From a virus (Duplodnaviria; Heunggongvirae; Uroviricota; Caudoviricetes): a stretch of DNA of 9,671 nt. A program made the translations under genes and the position numbers. A model generated the notes under the pieces. It was given only the letters and a program-made list of their open reading frames with translations. It was not told the origin of the DNA and searched no databases. The DNA is taken from positions 1 through 9,671 of IMG/VR virus record IMGVR_UViG_2681813205_000018, one strand, 5' to 3'. This document shows, piece by piece, positions 2,118 through 9,671 of this stretch (position 1 is its first letter; every line of letters begins with the position of its first letter).

Positions 2118-2203
2118 TATTTATGCCAGACCCCTGCTGATTCTGTTGATTGGGGAATCACAGAATATCACCAGAGGATGGTTCGTCACAAGATGAGGCA
2201 ATT

Positions 2204-3214
2204 ATGGCCGCATTACCATACATGCAACTGTACATAGCTGATTACCTGGCTGACACCATGCATTTGTCCGCAGAGGAGCACGGTGCGTATTTGTTGCTGA
2301 TGTTCAATTACTGGCAAACAGGGAAACCAATACCTAAAAACAGGCTGGCAAAAATTTCCCGTCTGACTAACGAGCGATGGGCTGATGTGGAACCATCCTT
2401 GCGGGAGTTTTTTTGCGATAACAGCGATGAATGGGTGCATCTTCGGATTGAGGAAGATCTGGCATCAGTCAGGGAAAAATTGACCAAAAAATCAGCCGCC
2501 GGAAAAGCATCTGTTCAGGCCAGAAGAAGCAGAAAGGAAGCATATGTTCAAACAAAACAAGAGAGAGATTTAACAGGTGTTCAAACAAATGTTGGTGTTG
2601 TGTTTGAACATGACGCAAACACAAAAGCAACTAATAAAGATACAGATCTAAAAGAATTAAACCCCACACATAACGTGCGTGAACGCGAGAGTATTCCGAC
2701 CAGTGAGTCGCATGGTGCGCCGTTGCAGACAGCCGAACCTGAATACCTGGACGGCATGAGCGAACCGATCGGGAAATTTTCGATGACTACTGTCTGGCAG
2801 CCGTCGCCGGATTTTCGACAACGGGCAGCAGTGTGGGGTATGGCTCTGCCTGAGCCGGAATTTACACCTGCTGAGCTTGCCGCATTCCGGGATTACTGGA
2901 TGGCGGAGGGGAAGGTTTTCACGCAGGTTCAGTGGGAGCAGAAATTTGCCCGCCACGTGCAGCACGTCAGGGCACAGGTAAAACCAGTCAGCAAGGGGGT
3001 AAGCCATGCAGCATCAGGTGGCACGGCATCACGGGCAGTTCAGGAAATCCGGGCAGCACGCGAACAGTGGGAACGTGAAAACGGATTTATCAGCAACGGA
3101 AACGGCCTGGAAGCTGTGGGAGCTTATGGGGGAGGTGTATTCGAACCGCTGGACTCAGAAGAACGGGGCCGCACCTTCGAAGCTCTGGATTGCCCAGATT
3201 GGTGCGATGACTGA
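2204..3214 (+). CDS. ydaU: Replication initiator, O-like (YdaU/DUF1376 N-terminal domain + DnaT-like C-terminal domain)
   Basis: Frame of track ORF 2150..3214, which starts at a TTG. Chosen start is ATG 2204 (MAALPYMQLYIADYL) with GAGG 7 nt upstream. N-terminal DUF1376-type domain, a low-complexity linker, and a C-terminal FTPAELAAFRDYWMAEG segment resembling the DnaT DNA-binding domain. Immediately precedes the P-like gene. Confidence 0.7.
   Translation: MAALPYMQLYIADYLADTMHLSAEEHGAYLLLMFNYWQTGKPIPKNRLAKISRLTNERWADVEPSLREFFCDNSDEWVHLRIEEDLASVREKLTKKSAAGKASVQARRSRKEAYVQTKQERDLTGVQTNVGVVFEHDANTKATNKDTDLKELNPTHNVRERESIPTSESHGAPLQTAEPEYLDGMSEPIGKFSMTTVWQPSPDFRQRAAVWGMALPEPEFTPAELAAFRDYWMAEGKVFTQVQWEQKFARHVQHVRAQVKPVSKGVSHAASGGTASRAVQEIRAAREQWERENGFISNGNGLEAVGAYGGGVFEPLDSEERGRTFEALDCPDWCDD
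2545..2610. repeat. Candidate origin iterons inside the O-like gene
   Basis: 10-mer TGTTCAAACA occurs directly at 2545 and 2578 and inverted (TGTTTGAACA) at 2601, followed by an A-rich stretch (2615-2660). Lies in the inter-domain linker of the O-like initiator, as ori-lambda lies within O. Confidence 0.3.
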
Positions 3215-3668
3215 ACAGCAAATCCGTCTGGTCTGCCGTCAGTGCATGGACCGCTGCCGGGCGGGTGAAACGTGGCCCCCGGACCTGGCTGAGTTTGTTG
3301 CGCTGATTTCGGAGAGTGGGGCAAATCCATTTGGTCTTACGGTGGATGCCGTGATGGAAGAGTACCGGCGCTGGCGCAATGAATCCTGGCGATACGACGG
3401 GAGTGATAAATACCCGTGGCCACAGCCTGTGCTGTACCACATCTGCCTCGAAATGCGTACCAGAGGGATTGAGCGCCAGATGACGCAGGGTGAGTTAAAA
3501 CTACTTGCAGAACGGCAACTGACGAAATGGGCAAAGCATGTTGGTAACGGGATGAGTGTTCCGCCAGTGCGACGACAACTGGAAGGGGCGAAACACCCGC
3601 AAGGGCCAACGCCAATTGAGCGGCTGAAACAGGAATACGAACGCCGGAAGGCAGCTGGTTTTATTTGA
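3126..3668 (+). CDS. Replication protein P-like (DnaB helicase loader)
   Basis: By-eye alignment to lambda P as I recall it: PPDLAEFVA vs PSPGQFVA, YPW motif, and a C-terminal LT..EL...A...L.......G...P.PV.Q pattern. Start is uncertain: ATG 3126 (GGGAG upstream) is chosen; ATG 3006 would overlap the O-like gene by about 200 nt; ATG 3207 overlaps the O stop. Confidence 0.6.
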   Translation: MGEVYSNRWTQKNGAAPSKLWIAQIGAMTEQQIRLVCRQCMDRCRAGETWPPDLAEFVALISESGANPFGLTVDAVMEEYRRWRNESWRYDGSDKYPWPQPVLYHICLEMRTRGIERQMTQGELKLLAERQLTKWAKHVGNGMSVPPVRRQLEGAKHPQGPTPIERLKQEYERRKAAGFI

Positions 3669-4732: not shown

Positions 4733-4956
4733 AAATCCTGTATCAGGATTACGGCCCGGTGGGGCAGGTGGTTATCAGCAGTACTGTAATGGAGTTTCGG
4801 AAGCATAACCGTGTGGTGGATGCTGTGCTGTTAACCTGTCCGGGGATATCGGCGAGTCGTGCAGGTGTGTTTATTATGAAGACGAAATTATATGGCAGTA
4901 AGGCGTGGATAAAGAAGGCGTATCGTGTAGCGTTGCAGGAGGTTAACAGTGAGTGA
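4729..4956 (+). CDS. Hypothetical protein
   Basis: GTG start at 4729 overlaps the upstream stop (GTGA) and has AGGAGGG 8 nt upstream. 75 aa. No recognisable family. Confidence 0.45.
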   Translation: MKILYQDYGPVGQVVISSTVMEFRKHNRVVDAVLLTCPGISASRAGVFIMKTKLYGSKAWIKKAYRVALQEVNSE

Positions 4957-5260
4957 AATTAAAGAAATGCCGGTAGTTCGTGACGGATATGGCTACTGGA
5001 CACATCCTGAATATGAAAAATTCTGTGATGGTCGGGAATATATTTCAACGGAAGAGTTTAACGCCTGGATGGAGGAAAATAATCTTCAATACGTCCTCTG
5101 CTTCAGAGATGAAGGATGTGCTGACCTTGATGCGTGTGATGCTGATATTTCTGCATGGGAACCGGAACGACCAGAGGGCGATGGCTGGTTTATTGGTTCC
5201 ATTCATGATACGGAAGATGGCCCGGTTTGTGTCTGGTTGCGAAATAAGGCTGAAGCATAA
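4949..5260 (+). CDS. Hypothetical acidic phage protein
   Basis: GTG start at 4949 with AGGAGG 6 nt upstream, overlapping the previous stop. 103 aa, Cys/Asp-rich. The competing track ORF 4980..5285 is in another frame and lacks an RBS. Confidence 0.5.
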   Translation: MSEIKEMPVVRDGYGYWTHPEYEKFCDGREYISTEEFNAWMEENNLQYVLCFRDEGCADLDACDADISAWEPERPEGDGWFIGSIHDTEDGPVCVWLRNKAEA

Positions 5261-5359
5261 AGGCGATAAACCAACTAACAACTAAATACTGAAGATTTAA
5301 ATCAGAAACGATTTTTATTAAATCCTTAACCGGAGGGATTCCTGCACCCTCAGAACATC

Positions 5360-5390
5360 AGGAGGCCGCCCGAAAGGGCGGTAAGAAATG
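5360..5390 (+). promoter_or_regulatory. Shine-Dalgarno plus hairpin translation-initiation structure
   Basis: AGGAGG (5360-5365) lies 22 nt upstream of ATG 5388, but a 6-7 bp GC hairpin (CCGCCC 5366-5371, GAAA loop, GGGCGG 5376-5381) between them would bring the SD to about 6 nt from the start codon when folded. Confidence 0.4.
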
Positions 5391-5606
5391 AAACATTATT
5401 TAGAAAAAAATTACCCACGAAAGAGCAGAACAACAGAGTTTCTGTTTTTCATTCTGTTTATAGTGTTGATGATACCGATATCCCCGCTATTACTGGTCTG
5501 GATAATTGGAAGGACATTTGAACCAGTTATTGAGCTATATACCGATGTGACATGGGAATCATTCAGCGCACTGCACAATAAAATTAATCCGTATAAGGAA
5601 AACTGA
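5388..5606 (+). CDS. Small single-pass membrane protein (hypothetical)
   Basis: 72-aa ORF in a visibly AT-rich segment. One strongly hydrophobic stretch, FLFFILFIVLMIPISPLLLVWIIG, after a basic N-terminus. Confidence 0.5.
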   Translation: MKHYLEKNYPRKSRTTEFLFFILFIVLMIPISPLLLVWIIGRTFEPVIELYTDVTWESFSALHNKINPYKEN

Positions 5607-5607
5607 T

Positions 5608-6165
5608 ATGAGCACTATTACCAGAGAACGCGCGGAGATTAAATCATACATCACAGGCTTCCTGAGCGACTCGGCGCACGATAACAAGTCTTCAGACAGC
5701 CTGCTGGCTAATGTGTTTCGTATCGCGCTGGCATCACTGGAAGCAGAGCCGATAGCAATGGTAGTGCCTGATGAAATGGATTTGCTTACCTGCCATCTCG
5801 ACGGTGTAACTAAAACATATGCTGATGGCTGGAACGCCTGCCGCGTCGCCATGCTTCAGGCCGGAAACTTTCGGGAAAATAAGAATTCGTCAACCAACAA
5901 TTTTCGGGAAATCTCGGAAACGTCAACCAGATCTCCGATAACTCTGGATGGCTGGATAAGCTGTACTGAGCGAATGCCTGAAAAGAGCCAGAACGTGCTT
6001 ATTTCGATGAATATCGATAGCGAGGCTGGGCCATTAATATATTCCGCACGCTATCTCGGAGGCACGTTCCGGCGCGGAGGTATAGCAGTTAGTCCGGGTA
6101 ATGATCTTAGGCAAGCAACCCACTGGATGTCGCTACCAGAACCGCCGCAGGAGGTGAATCAATGA
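5608..6165 (+). CDS. DUF551 domain-containing phage protein
   Basis: ATG 5608 is 1 nt after the upstream stop, with AAGGA upstream. C-terminal WISCTERMPE...THWMSLPEPP matches the DUF551 signature as I recall it. Confidence 0.65.
   Translation: MSTITRERAEIKSYITGFLSDSAHDNKSSDSLLANVFRIALASLEAEPIAMVVPDEMDLLTCHLDGVTKTYADGWNACRVAMLQAGNFRENKNSSTNNFREISETSTRSPITLDGWISCTERMPEKSQNVLISMNIDSEAGPLIYSARYLGGTFRRGGIAVSPGNDLRQATHWMSLPEPPQEVNQ
5866..5931 (+). repeat. Imperfect 33-bp tandem duplication inside the DUF551 gene
   Basis: AACTTTCGGGAAAATAAGAATTCGTCAACCAAC (5866-5898) and AATTTTCGGGAAATCTCGGAAACGTCAACCAGA (5899-5931). Encodes an 11-aa repeat NFRENKNSSTN / NFREISETSTR. Confidence 0.6.
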
Positions 6166-6245
6166 CCTGGCCTGAAGCATTCACAACGGTAGGAATTGCG
6201 ATGGCGGTGGCGCTGGTGGTGTATTCGATTTGCCGCTGGGGATAA
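6162..6245 (+). CDS. Unannotated 27-aa hydrophobic peptide
   Basis: ATG 6162 overlaps the DUF551 stop (ATGA) and has AGGAGG 8 nt upstream (6148-6153). Encodes MTWPEAFTTVGIAMAVALVVYSICRWG, a single predicted TM helix. Absent from the ORF track because of its length. Confidence 0.35.
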   Translation: MTWPEAFTTVGIAMAVALVVYSICRWG

Positions 6246-6503
6246 AAACGGTTTGCGGGAAAAGGATAGTTAAGTAGAATTGCAGCGGGTGCTTGAGGCT
6301 ATCTGCCTCGGGCATGAACACCAACGGCAGATAGAGAAAAGCCCCAGTTAACATTACGCGTCCTGCAAGACGCTTAACATTAATCTGAGGCTCAATCCAT
6401 GCTGAACACATGTAGGTTAGCCTCTTACGTGCCGAAAGGCAAGGAGAAGCAGGCTATTGTTAACACCAAGCTGTAATGTCCCCTTTGAACCATTCTAAAA
6501 TGT

Positions 6504-6530
6504 CCCCAGACAATTCTCTGGGGGATTTTT
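6504..6530 (+). terminator. Terminator-like hairpin immediately upstream of the transposase start
   Basis: Perfect 7-bp stem CCCCAGA (6504-6510) / TCTGGGG (6517-6523) with a 6-nt loop, then ATTTTTC, ending 1 nt before ATG 6532. Confidence 0.4.
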
Positions 6531-6531
6531 C

Positions 6532-7872
6532 ATGATCAAAGAGACTGTTACGATGAGTCATAAGGAACTCCACCGACTTCAGATTATTCAGGAGTCAATT
6601 AATCGACATATTACTCAGGAACAAGCTGCGGCACGCATTGGCATTTCTATTCGGCAGGTTAAACGTCTGGTGCAACGGTATAGAAATGAAGGGCCTTCTG
6701 GTCTGGTTTCCCACCGACGTGGAAAGCGTCCTAATAATTCCTTTTCTACTGAATTCAGAGCAACAGTAATTTCACTCCTCAAAGGCCGTTACGCTGATTT
6801 TGGACCTACGTTTGCGTGCGAAAAATTGCGCGAGATACACGGTTTATCTTTATCCGTTGAAACTCTCAGAAAGTGGATGATAGAAGAGGGGTTATGGCGT
6901 GAACGCCGTCGTAAAATTGCCCGTATATATCAACGCCGCATGCGACGACCATCTTACGGTGAACTGATCCAGATTGATGGCTCACCTCATGACTGGTTTG
7001 AAAATCGAGGCCCCAGATGTACACTGATCGTTTTCATTGATGATGCCACCAGTGCGTTGATGGCGTTGCGTTTTGTGCCTGCTGAAACAACCCGGGCTTA
7101 CATGGAAACCCTCCGGGGTTACCTTGATGATCATGGCGTACCGCTCGCTCTCTACTCTGATAGACACAGTATATTCAGGGTAAATAACCCAGAGCGGGAA
7201 GGTGAGCTGACCCAGTTCACTCGTGCGATAAAGACACTGGGCATCGAGCCAATCCATGCCAACAGCCCGCAGGCAAAAGGGCGGGTAGAGCGCGCCAATC
7301 AGACACTACAGGACAGGCTGGTCAAAGAAATGCGGCTTCAGAATATCAGTGATATTGAAACAGCAAATGCATGGTTGCCGACCTTTATTGAAGCCTATAA
7401 CAACCGGTTCGCTACGTCGCCTCGTACTACTGATAATGCTCATCTTGATGTGCACCATTCTGAAGAGGAACTGGGTTATATCTTCAGCCTACAGGCGAAG
7501 CGCGTTCTGTCTAAAAATCTCACTTTCCAGTACAAAAGCAGTGCGTTTCAGGTACGCAGTGAGGGCCGGGGATATCGACTTAGGCATTCGGTTGTTACTG
7601 TATGCGAGAACTTTGACGGTGAAATTAACGTTCTGTATGACGGGAAAGCGCTGGGCTGGGAAAAGTATGTTGATGGCCCGGAGCCTATACCACTGGATGA
7701 TGAAAAGAGTGTCCATGAACGAGTGGATAATGCCCGTATTGATTTACGCTCAAAATACTATGTTAAACCTAAAGCTGACCATCCCTGGCTTACGCGCCGA
7801 ACGCAAAGTCATCAGCAAGTTAAGCCCCCGAAGTTACCTAAAAAGAAGCCTGATCCCGATAAAATAGATTGA
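6532..7872 (+). CDS. DDE transposase, IS481/ISNCY-like (rve integrase core, N-terminal HTH)
   Basis: 446-aa ORF. N-terminal HTH (ITQEQAAARIGISIRQVKRLVQRY). Catalytic triad candidates in LIQIDGS, LYSDRHS and AKGRVERANQ with integrase-like spacing. Pattern resembles IS481-family transposases (IVFIDDATS..., PQAKGRVE). Alternative start ATG 6553. Confidence 0.8.
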   Translation: MIKETVTMSHKELHRLQIIQESINRHITQEQAAARIGISIRQVKRLVQRYRNEGPSGLVSHRRGKRPNNSFSTEFRATVISLLKGRYADFGPTFACEKLREIHGLSLSVETLRKWMIEEGLWRERRRKIARIYQRRMRRPSYGELIQIDGSPHDWFENRGPRCTLIVFIDDATSALMALRFVPAETTRAYMETLRGYLDDHGVPLALYSDRHSIFRVNNPEREGELTQFTRAIKTLGIEPIHANSPQAKGRVERANQTLQDRLVKEMRLQNISDIETANAWLPTFIEAYNNRFATSPRTTDNAHLDVHHSEEELGYIFSLQAKRVLSKNLTFQYKSSAFQVRSEGRGYRLRHSVVTVCENFDGEINVLYDGKALGWEKYVDGPEPIPLDDEKSVHERVDNARIDLRSKYYVKPKADHPWLTRRTQSHQQVKPPKLPKKKPDPDKID

Positions 7873-8811: not shown

Positions 8812-9396
8812 ATGGAATCATTCTCTGTTGAGCATTGGTTACCACAGGCTACTGCTGGAGATAGTCAGGCTAGATTTTATTTGGGGAAGATATTCTCATG
8901 CGGGCTGGGTGTTCATCAGGATTATAAGCTGGCTATATACTGGTTTCAGCTTGCAGCGGAGCAAGGCCATGATGATGCCCAGTTTAATCTTGGGTGGGTA
9001 TATCATTTGGGGTTAGGTGGATATAAACATGTCCAAAAAGCGTCTGAATGGTATCAGAAGGCCGCTCTGCAAGGTCATGCAGAGGCTCAGTTTCATCTAG
9101 GAAGGCTGTATGCTTTCTCTTATTTAAGAAATGATGGGCTTGCAGTTGAATGGTTTCTCTGTGCCGCGAAGCAAGGCTATAGTAGTGCGCAATTTAAACT
9201 TGGCTGGATGTATCATCTCGGTATGGGCGTTGAGCAAAGTGACAGGCAGGCTTTCCATTGGTTTATTCGGGCTGCTGAGCAAGATCATGCAGGGGCTCAG
9301 GCATCTCTTGGTGAGATGTATAAGCATGGGTGGGGAGTCGAGCAAGACGAAACGATGGCACAGTATTGGTTTCGACTCGCAAGAACAATGCCATAG
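8812..9396 (+). CDS. Sel1-repeat (TPR-like) protein
   Basis: ATG 8812 with AAGGGG 8 nt upstream, 5 nt after the upstream stop. At least five tandem Sel1-type repeats (e.g. AIYWFQLAAEQGHDDAQFNLGWVYHLGLG; ASEWYQKAALQGHAEAQFHLGRLY; AFHWFIRAAEQDHAGAQASLGEMYKHGWGV). No signal peptide evident. Confidence 0.8.
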   Translation: MESFSVEHWLPQATAGDSQARFYLGKIFSCGLGVHQDYKLAIYWFQLAAEQGHDDAQFNLGWVYHLGLGGYKHVQKASEWYQKAALQGHAEAQFHLGRLYAFSYLRNDGLAVEWFLCAAKQGYSSAQFKLGWMYHLGMGVEQSDRQAFHWFIRAAEQDHAGAQASLGEMYKHGWGVEQDETMAQYWFRLARTMP

Positions 9397-9400
9397 CATC

Positions 9401-9424
9401 AAGCCCGCCCTGCGGGCTTTTTTA
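9401..9424 (+). terminator. Rho-independent terminator of the cassette
   Basis: 8-bp stem AAGCCCGC (9401-9408) / GCGGGCTT (9412-9419) with a 3-nt loop, followed by a T-run, 5 nt after the Sel1 gene stop. Confidence 0.7.
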
Positions 9425-9671
9425 TGTGTCAAGGCTAAGTTCAGATGTCCGTCGTAGGGCAAAGTTCAAATGTCCTCTCTGTGCCTATAACCTCTTCTGA
9501 GTAAAAGGTGAGGTGTACTGGCAATAGCGGACACTACCATTTGTTCTTTTTTTAAGCAGCCATCTGATGATATTTTTCCCTGAAGGCTGCCGGGGAGATA
9601 TTCCCCAGACGAGAGTGACGACGCTGACGATTGTAGAAAATCTCAATGTATTCCCGTATTACTGAGATGGC
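9425..9671 (-). mobile_element. IS3-family insertion sequence, 3' end (continues beyond window)
   Basis: Contains the C-terminal end of an IS3-family OrfB on the minus strand. Plus-strand TGTGTCAAGG at 9425 is consistent with an IS3-type ...CA terminus. Subterminal direct repeats AAGTTCAGATGTCC (9438-9450) / AAGTTCAAATGTCC (9463-9476). Exact end not established. Confidence 0.45.
9552..9671 (-). CDS. IS3-family transposase OrfB, C-terminal fragment (truncated by window edge)
   Basis: Minus-strand translation from the window edge reads AISVIREYIEIFYNRQRRHSRLGNISPAAFREKYHQMAA then stop (plus 9552-9554). The FYNRQRRHS.LG..SP..F motif is the conserved C-terminus of IS3-family OrfB transposases. 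Confidence 0.7.
   Translation of the reverse strand, partial: AISVIREYIEIFYNRQRRHSRLGNISPAAFREKYHQMAA

Follow-up and report, generated by a model that had tools for sequence, protein, structure and literature searches.

A stable hairpin between Shine-Dalgarno sequence and start codon in lambdoid prophages of E. coli: a probable split translation-initiation region carried as a portable unit

A small gene in a prophage of E. coli O157:H7 has a strong Shine-Dalgarno (SD) sequence that stands much further from the start codon than is usual, and the gap between them is filled by a hairpin. This raises the question of what the hairpin does, and in particular whether ribosomes could use the SD across it. 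The window (the whole stretch of DNA that was analysed, 9,671 nt) is a lambdoid prophage of E. coli O157:H7. In it, O/P-like replication genes (2150-3668) are followed by a DUF1627 gene, small ORFs and a 127-nt intergenic region (5261-5387), and then by a DUF4014 gene, a DUF551 gene, a hok/sok locus (6181-6458), an IS transposase gene and nin-like genes. The features around the start codon are:

5360-5365, + strand: Shine-Dalgarno sequence AGGAGG, by direct reading of the sequence.
5365-5382, + strand: hairpin B, as folded by RNAfold, with six G-C pairs (CCGCCC 5366-5371 with GGGCGG 5376-5381), the loop GAAA at 5372-5375, and an optional extra closing pair G5365.U5382.
5382-5387, + strand: A-rich linker UAAGAA, 6 nt, by direct reading.
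5388-5606, + strand: DUF4014 gene, 72 aa with one hydrophobic helix, starting at ATG 5388 (Pfam PF13198, E = 1e-24, residues 1-72 of 72).
5608-6165, + strand: DUF551 gene, which starts 1 nt past the DUF4014 stop and lies in the same operon.

Two of the neighbouring loci deserve a brief description. The hok/sok locus is of the type I toxin-antitoxin kind, with a sok RNA that matches Rfam RF01794 at 107.7 bits; the Hok ORF appears on the - strand in the ORF list of the window, and in O157 an annotated Hok/Gef gene lies just downstream of DUF551. The transposase (446 aa, HTH_28/HTH_29 with an rve_3 integrase core, 6532-7872) is inserted between hok/sok and the nin-like genes.

The DUF4014 product is annotated as WP_000683609.1 in O157:H7, and its single hydrophobic stretch agrees with its initial description as a small membrane protein. 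The triplet TAA 5382-5384 is an in-frame stop that ends the upstream reading frame; because of it, and because the DUF4014 alignment is full length, ATG 5388 is the only possible start, so the alternative of a different start codon falls away. A leader peptide is also ruled out. Leader ORFs ending at TAA 5382 or at TGA 5389 have no canonical start codon in either frame back to the previous stop. DUF4014 homologues that do not belong to the module described below have an ordinary contiguous SD, as in 933W, where the gene abuts L0068 and the arrangement is AAGGAG-N6-GTG, or in other homologues GGGAG-N5-ATG. An SD is thus usual in the family, and the present gene has none other than AGGAGG on the far side of the hairpin. 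Neither the hairpin sequence nor the term DUF4014 was found in the literature searched.

The SD lies 22 nt from ATG 5388 in the linear sequence, as had been noted at the outset, and this is beyond the normal SD range (more than about 13 nt). When the 16-nt hairpin is looped out the distance becomes 6 nt, which is inside the range of about 5-11 nt, and the initial proposal that folding brings the SD to a functional spacing agrees with this geometry. RNAfold predicts the hairpin with 7 pairs, including G5365.U5382, and an energy of -15.5 kcal/mol; a 61-nt stretch around it has a z-score of -2.88, and only 1 of 200 shuffles folds equally well. Among 24-nt local folds on the + strand of the whole 9.7-kb window it ranks second, the first being a hok/sok fold. 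The window has a single copy of the 22-mer made of SD and hairpin, where 0 would be expected.

The SD and the AUG are both outside the stem, and the AUG is predicted to be unpaired (P about 0.9); the last base of the SD, G5365, is able to form the G.U pair with U5382. The stem is predicted to remain folded across 20-90°C, with a pair probability of at least 0.98 up to 80°C. It is concluded that hairpin B is, as far as folding predictions go, a permanently folded spacer and not a labile switch or a thermosensor. An RNA thermometer or a hairpin that sequesters the SD was rejected on the same two grounds, the position of SD and AUG outside the stem and the high pair probability. The initial annotation had also suggested that an unfolded hairpin would leave the gene poorly translated. 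Given the predicted stability to above 80°C, this does not hold as a physiological control and would apply to the phenotype of a mutant only.

A hairpin of this kind might also act in transcription, either as an intrinsic terminator or as a boxB-like or put-like antitermination site. The GCCC-GAAA-GGGC core of hairpin B resembles lambda boxB (GCCCU-GAAAA-AGGGC), and the position of the element, with the replication genes on one side and the nin-like region on the other, is that of tR2 in lambda. The stem is followed by UAAGAAAUG on the + strand and CCUCCUGAUG on the - strand, and there is no T-run (U run in the RNA) on either, which argues that hairpin B is not an intrinsic (Rho-independent) terminator. 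A terminator scan of 4900-5900 returned 0 sites, and promoter and terminator scans of the + strand near the element returned nothing; the terminator reading is largely refuted. A nut site (boxA plus boxB, as in lambdoid N antitermination) was rejected, there being no CGCUCUUA-like boxA in 5262-5365 and the element following O/P-like replication genes instead of standing just downstream of an early promoter. Against a transcription signal in general are the distance of the site from any early promoter, which amounts to kilobases, its position in other phages, where it occupies the leftward ea region, the lack of a boxA-like CGCTCTT in the same interval, and the lack of an Rfam match. The best Rfam scores in 5250-5420 were 20.5 and 18.3 bits against thresholds of 45, and an Rfam search of the whole window gave no match at the element. 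We consider a transcription signal highly improbable.

Terminator-like hairpins with T-runs do occur elsewhere in the window, at 6503-6530 and 9402-9425. The first (CCCCAGA/TCTGGGG followed by AUUUUU) stands just before the transposase ATG at 6532. The second (AGCCCGC/GCGGGCU followed by UUUUU) lies past an ORF that ends at 9396, and has a weak match to the Rfam Trp_leader family.

Hairpin B does not stand alone, being the 3' end of a longer intergenic element that was delimited by BLAST and by its information profile:

5317-5383, + strand: intergenic module of about 67 nt, consisting of AUUAAAUCCUUAACCGGAGGGAUUCCUGCACCCUCAGAACAUCAGGAGG, the hairpin and UA, with sharp mosaic boundaries on both sides.

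In BLAST searches the interval 5317-5383/5390 alone matches sequences upstream of other genes, with 93-97% identity, in many E. coli genomes and phages. When IMG/VR was scanned with an anchor that did not include the hairpin, at least 120 loci came back. The information per position is about 2 bits throughout 5317-5383 and about 0.5 bits in both flanks (77 distinct loci). The module is present in 2312 of 5426 complete E. coli genomes (about 43%), where it occupies 3196 places, with up to 4 copies per genome, and is annotated in none of them. The anchored scans fix its SD by design, so that it cannot vary in them; in one related locus type GGGAGG replaces AGGAGG. In loci that share the adjacent DUF7167 gene, the nucleotide diversity of the module is 0.055-0.069, compared to 0.183 at the third codon positions of DUF7167, or about one third of that at neighbouring synonymous sites.

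The host range is narrow. A scan of genome contigs in which the G/C stems were left free (pattern TCAGGAGGCSSSSSGAAASSSSSG) found the element only in Shigella/E. coli, in Citrobacter braakii and in one probably contaminated MAG. The other 30 matches were unrelated G+C-rich sequences or true terminators, and no diverged homologues of the element were seen in that scan; nhmmer with a module profile over all 272 loci likewise found no diverged copies of the hairpin. The Rac and Qin prophages of E. coli K-12 do not have the element, and K-12 data sets from structure probing and ribosome profiling are therefore unusable here.

One record sits oddly with this range. The module is present at 96% identity at 11347-11421 of PP818812.1, which is named 'Actinobacillus phage vB_Apl-pPE4'. 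Since the element is elsewhere limited to E. coli and Citrobacter, this host is unexpected, and contamination or a mistaken host assignment may explain it.

Such a distribution invites the suggestion that there is no function at the RNA level, and that the module is a conserved DNA linker, recently spread, at which homologous recombination shuffles the flanking lambdoid accessory genes. According to the module theory of Susskind and Botstein, conserved boundary or linker sequences are reportedly found at the mosaic junctions of lambdoid phages, and like them the present element is a short conserved intergenic sequence between interchangeable genes. The mosaic junctions fall exactly at both ends of the module, the gene sets differ on both sides, many loci have a gene between the two halves of the module, and the range is limited to E. 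coli/Shigella and Citrobacter braakii. All of these would be expected of a linker. The roughly three-fold lower diversity relative to adjacent synonymous sites argues against it, as does the constant position of the start codon relative to the hairpin; in this fixed relation to start codons, and in being apparently constrained at the level of RNA, the element differs from the lambdoid linkers.

The pattern of substitutions in the stem bears on the same point. Two changes of C to U in the 5' arm, both of which keep a G.U pair, are common: CCGUCC (pair 4) occurs in at least 20 contigs and CCGCCU (pair 6) in at least 24, and the two variants are found with different downstream genes. For the mirror changes of G to A, which give a C.A mismatch, complete scans of IMG/VR yielded 0 contigs at pair 4 and 4 contigs at pair 6. 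Mutation alone would give U.G and C.A equally, and the excess of U.G thus points to selection for pairing in the + strand RNA. Since the contigs are not independent, the evidence that hairpin B is under such selection is suggestive. Compensatory U-A double changes at pairs 4 and 6 were absent from two directed scans. No pair was changed on both sides among 27 distinct sequences, six of the seven stem pairs show one-sided variation only, and the pair counts were not above those of shuffles because the element is nearly invariant. A DNA role does not predict the asymmetry between the strands, and we regard the idea of a linker with no RNA function as very doubtful.

The genes that follow the hairpin are varied. 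The distance from the hairpin to the first long ORF is 6-11 nt in 250 instances, most commonly 6, 7 or 9 nt. There are at least five unrelated gene starts, the downstream genes being DUF4014, DUF7167, a DUF551-type gene (product starting with MTELTKE), a gene for a protein that starts with MQEIKE, a 43-aa ORF and a gene resembling the Q antiterminator. The linkers, among them UAAGAA, UAGUUAA, UAAUGAAAA and AACAGAUA, are A/U-rich and have no SD of their own, with the exception of the Q-like gene, which stands behind the hairpin and has its own GGAG. In ArgO145 and in 83 IMG/VR contigs the SD and hairpin are also found on their own, with no 5' half attached. In this minimal unit AGGAGG lies 4 nt past the TAA of a 70-aa gene (MLNTQK...SYHND), and the downstream genes are again variable. 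The initial view of the hairpin as a spacer for the small membrane protein gene therefore holds for its geometry; as to its specificity it has to be amended, given that the hairpin is not particular to that gene and forms part of a mobile 67-nt module.

Other arrangements of SD, hairpin and ATG are rare in 2.6 Mb of related prophage DNA, where just one was found, in contig L087. It reads GGAGG-ACUGGC-AAAAAC-GCCAG-CAAGAAGAAA-AUG and precedes a 72-aa ORF (MPGKRLSVRICM...). A copy before a small-terminase gene of P2 type, in contig L130, was dropped. Comparison with Fels-2, RE-2010 and Klebsiella P2-like phages places the start of this gene (gene M) about 70 nt earlier, right after gene N, so the string lies inside the coding region and is not an independent copy. 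It is nonetheless an exact match of 25 nt (TCAGGAGGCCGCCCGAAAGGGCGG, at 11452-11476, within the codons for QAQEAARKGG) in a G+C-rich contig of a metagenomic phage. In several phages, HNH endonuclease genes are located directly 3' of genes served by the cassette, for example at 5439-6024 in ArgO145 (contig L128) and at 1979-2344 in contig L003.

The arrangement is known, if uncommon, as had been recognized initially, and T4 genes 38 and 25 have initiation regions that are built in the same way. A hairpin cuts the spacing between SD and AUG from 22 to 5 nt in T4 gene 38, and mutations in the stem lower translation (PMC3014915, PMC7297116; Gold 1988); in T4 gene 25 the spacing is cut from 27 to 11 nt, with the same effect of stem mutations (PMC3014915, PMC7297116; Nivinskas 1999; Malys and Nivinskas 2009). 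The likeness to gene 38 is close: in both cases a strong SD stands 22 nt from the AUG of a phage gene, a stable hairpin fills the gap to leave a short distance (about 5 nt there, 6 nt here), and SD and AUG are outside the stem. The two sequences are unrelated, however, and the T4 site belongs to a single gene, whereas the present unit stands before several genes that are unrelated to each other and is contained in a larger module that is itself conserved. The T4 mechanism has also been proven by mutation, and ours is proposed from the sequence. Gene 25, at the 26-25 junction, is a parallel for the minimal unit described above, in that the site is intercistronic and comes right after the upstream gene, and its hairpin too is conserved among close relatives only. 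It differs in that the upstream coding sequence runs into the T4 hairpin, while hairpin B contains no coding sequence at all and is capped by a GNRA tetraloop.

E. coli thrS and rpmE are a more distant comparison, being described as having noncontiguous ribosome-binding sites (Sacerdot 1998; PMC7297116). They have in common with the present case that a stable stem-loop is tolerated within the ribosome-binding region and organizes the elements of initiation. Their hairpin, however, is an operator bound by the product of the gene itself, and no autoregulatory protein is indicated here; moreover it separates an upstream enhancer from the SD, and not the SD from the AUG.

We therefore favour the reading, with a probability that we would put at roughly 0.55, that the translation-initiation region is split (noncontiguous), with hairpin B as its structural spacer, and that this hairpin forms part of a portable unit of SD and hairpin. 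The G-C stem with its GAAA tetraloop would always be folded in the mRNA, so looping out 16 nt, and AGGAGG would then lie 6 nt from AUG 5388, and 6-9 nt from the start codon in most other contexts. This spacing would let the 30S subunit pair with the SD while the start codon sits in the P site. Recombination in lambdoid prophages of E. coli would have put the SD and hairpin before several unrelated accessory genes, the unit being carried either as the 3' end of the 67-nt module or directly past the stop codon of an upstream gene. The analogy of T4 genes 38 and 25 makes it most likely that ribosomes use AGGAGG across the hairpin. The split site takes in the observed geometry, stability, conservation and portability and the bias towards substitutions that preserve pairing. 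Points against it are the lack of compensatory changes, the occurrence of the hairpin without a start codon, the GGAG that the Q-like gene has of its own, the predicted pairing of AGGA within the SD, and the inhibition of translation that is usual for hairpins close before a start codon; the second, the fourth and the last are taken up below.

Split ribosome-binding sites are known from a handful of genes, namely T4 genes 38 and 25 and, more loosely, thrS and rpmE. Thousands of E. coli prophages, those of O157:H7 among them, carry the unit described here, and if confirmed it would be the first split site to act as a portable unit for several unrelated genes. Gene finders and ribosome-binding-site calculators that consider contiguous SD sequences only would then misjudge such starts. 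The 22-nt unit could serve as a natural part with which to probe how the 30S subunit accommodates a helix between SD and P site, and the module is a clean example of non-coding sequence that is under selection exactly at a phage mosaic junction.

In some places the hairpin is kept where no gene follows. In at least seven contigs, and in Citrobacter braakii, there is no gene on the + strand past the SD and hairpin, and a convergent gene for a membrane protein, with its stop 12 nt from the hairpin, is found instead; in L136, L166, L248 and L293 the hairpin ends the string of + strand genes. That the hairpin is kept without a following gene suggests that another or an additional role is possible, such as protection of an RNA end or the marking of a recombination boundary. 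It might accordingly be supposed that the hairpin is mainly an element of mRNA stability or an operon boundary, acting as a barrier to 3'-to-5' exonucleases or protecting the downstream message, and that it may even damp translation; AGGAGG would then be a leftover, and the genes would start weakly and independently of an SD on the A-rich linker. The Q-like gene with its own GGAG would fit this too. As a rule, a hairpin in the last 40 nt ahead of the start codon inhibits translation (PMC4631060). The lambdoid average over this 40-nt stretch is about -6.5 (PMC4631060), and hairpin B greatly exceeds it in stability. Nevertheless, the position of SD and AUG outside the stem is the design of a split site and not of a sequestering one, and linkers of 6-9 nt that have no SD stand before five types of gene. 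In addition, DUF4014 homologues elsewhere use a contiguous SD, and the minimal version of the unit keeps AGGAGG together with the hairpin. We therefore think it unlikely, although less so than the other rivals considered here, that stability is the main role.

The 5' half of the module is as conserved as hairpin B, and the split site does not by itself explain this. The predicted elements of this half are:

5323-5326, + strand: UCCU, anti-SD-like, with predicted weak pairing to AGGA 5360-5363 (folds of 5316-5392 and 5262-5450).
5333-5351, + strand: hairpin A, in which GAGGG 5333-5337 pairs with CCCUC 5347-5351 around a 9-nt loop (predicted folds).

Across loci the stem of hairpin A is nearly invariant, and its loop is variable in sequence and length. 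The helix of UCCU with AGGA has 4 pairs, shows no covariation, and is predicted to close around hairpin A and to adjoin hairpin B. In the predicted folds the AGGA of the SD is mostly paired with the upstream UCCU or UCCUG (P unpaired about 0.1-0.2), and in alternatives that differ by no more than 1-2 kcal/mol the SD is paired to UCCUG 5340-5344 or to CCUC. The 5' half also has a second SD-like sequence, GGAGGG at 5332-5337. In related loci (L136 and similar) the GGAGG of the 5' half is a real SD, in the arrangement AAUCCUUAACCGGAGG-N7-ATG of the 70-aa gene. Because this gene starts behind the 5' half, the canonical module looks like two initiation regions joined by about 22 nt, and it may have arisen by a deletion that fused them.

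From these pairings the whole 67-nt module could be imagined as a regulated translational switch, in which UCCU, GGAGGG, CCCUC and the SD form mutually exclusive pairs, hairpin B is a scaffold that stacks on the regulatory helix, and a factor acting in trans decides access to the SD. The factor might be CsrA, bound to the two GGA motifs, or else a small RNA, a protein of the phage or a ribosome upstream. The predicted helix around hairpin A, the close alternatives in energy and the conservation of the 5' half are what such a switch would need. The 5' half might in this way gate the SD. The helices are of 4-5 pairs only, and there is zero covariation; besides, the SD and hairpin stand before the same genes without the 5' half, the 5' half in related loci is simply the SD region of another gene, and Rfam has no match. 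A switch of this kind appears to us improbable.

A broader version of the split site is that the 67-nt module is a self-contained expression cassette, in which the rigid GNRA hairpin both positions and insulates the SD and the 5' half is a small switch that couples or gates translation. We hold this to be possible, but more probably wrong than right. Deletion or disruption of the hairpin in silico, in 7 gene contexts, gave no consistent change in the accessibility of SD or AUG, and the insulating role is thus unsupported. If true, the cassette would be a mobile part of regulatory RNA that travels independently of the genes it serves, which would explain why it has been retained almost unchanged in 43% of E. 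coli genomes.

Two further observations concern hairpin A. In some copies of the module (L127, L224, L236, L262 and L065) the AUUU of its loop is replaced by a poly-G run of about 7-12 G, the length of which varies between contigs; it could be a tract prone to slippage or a sequencing error. A motif resembling hairpin A, GGGAUUUGUUCACCCU, recurs about 15 nt upstream of GAGGU-type SD sequences of other early genes (in L004, L012, L025, L047, L081 and others), the products of which start with MSKVFICAA... and MSADKEE..., and this suggests a second recurrent structured leader in these prophages.
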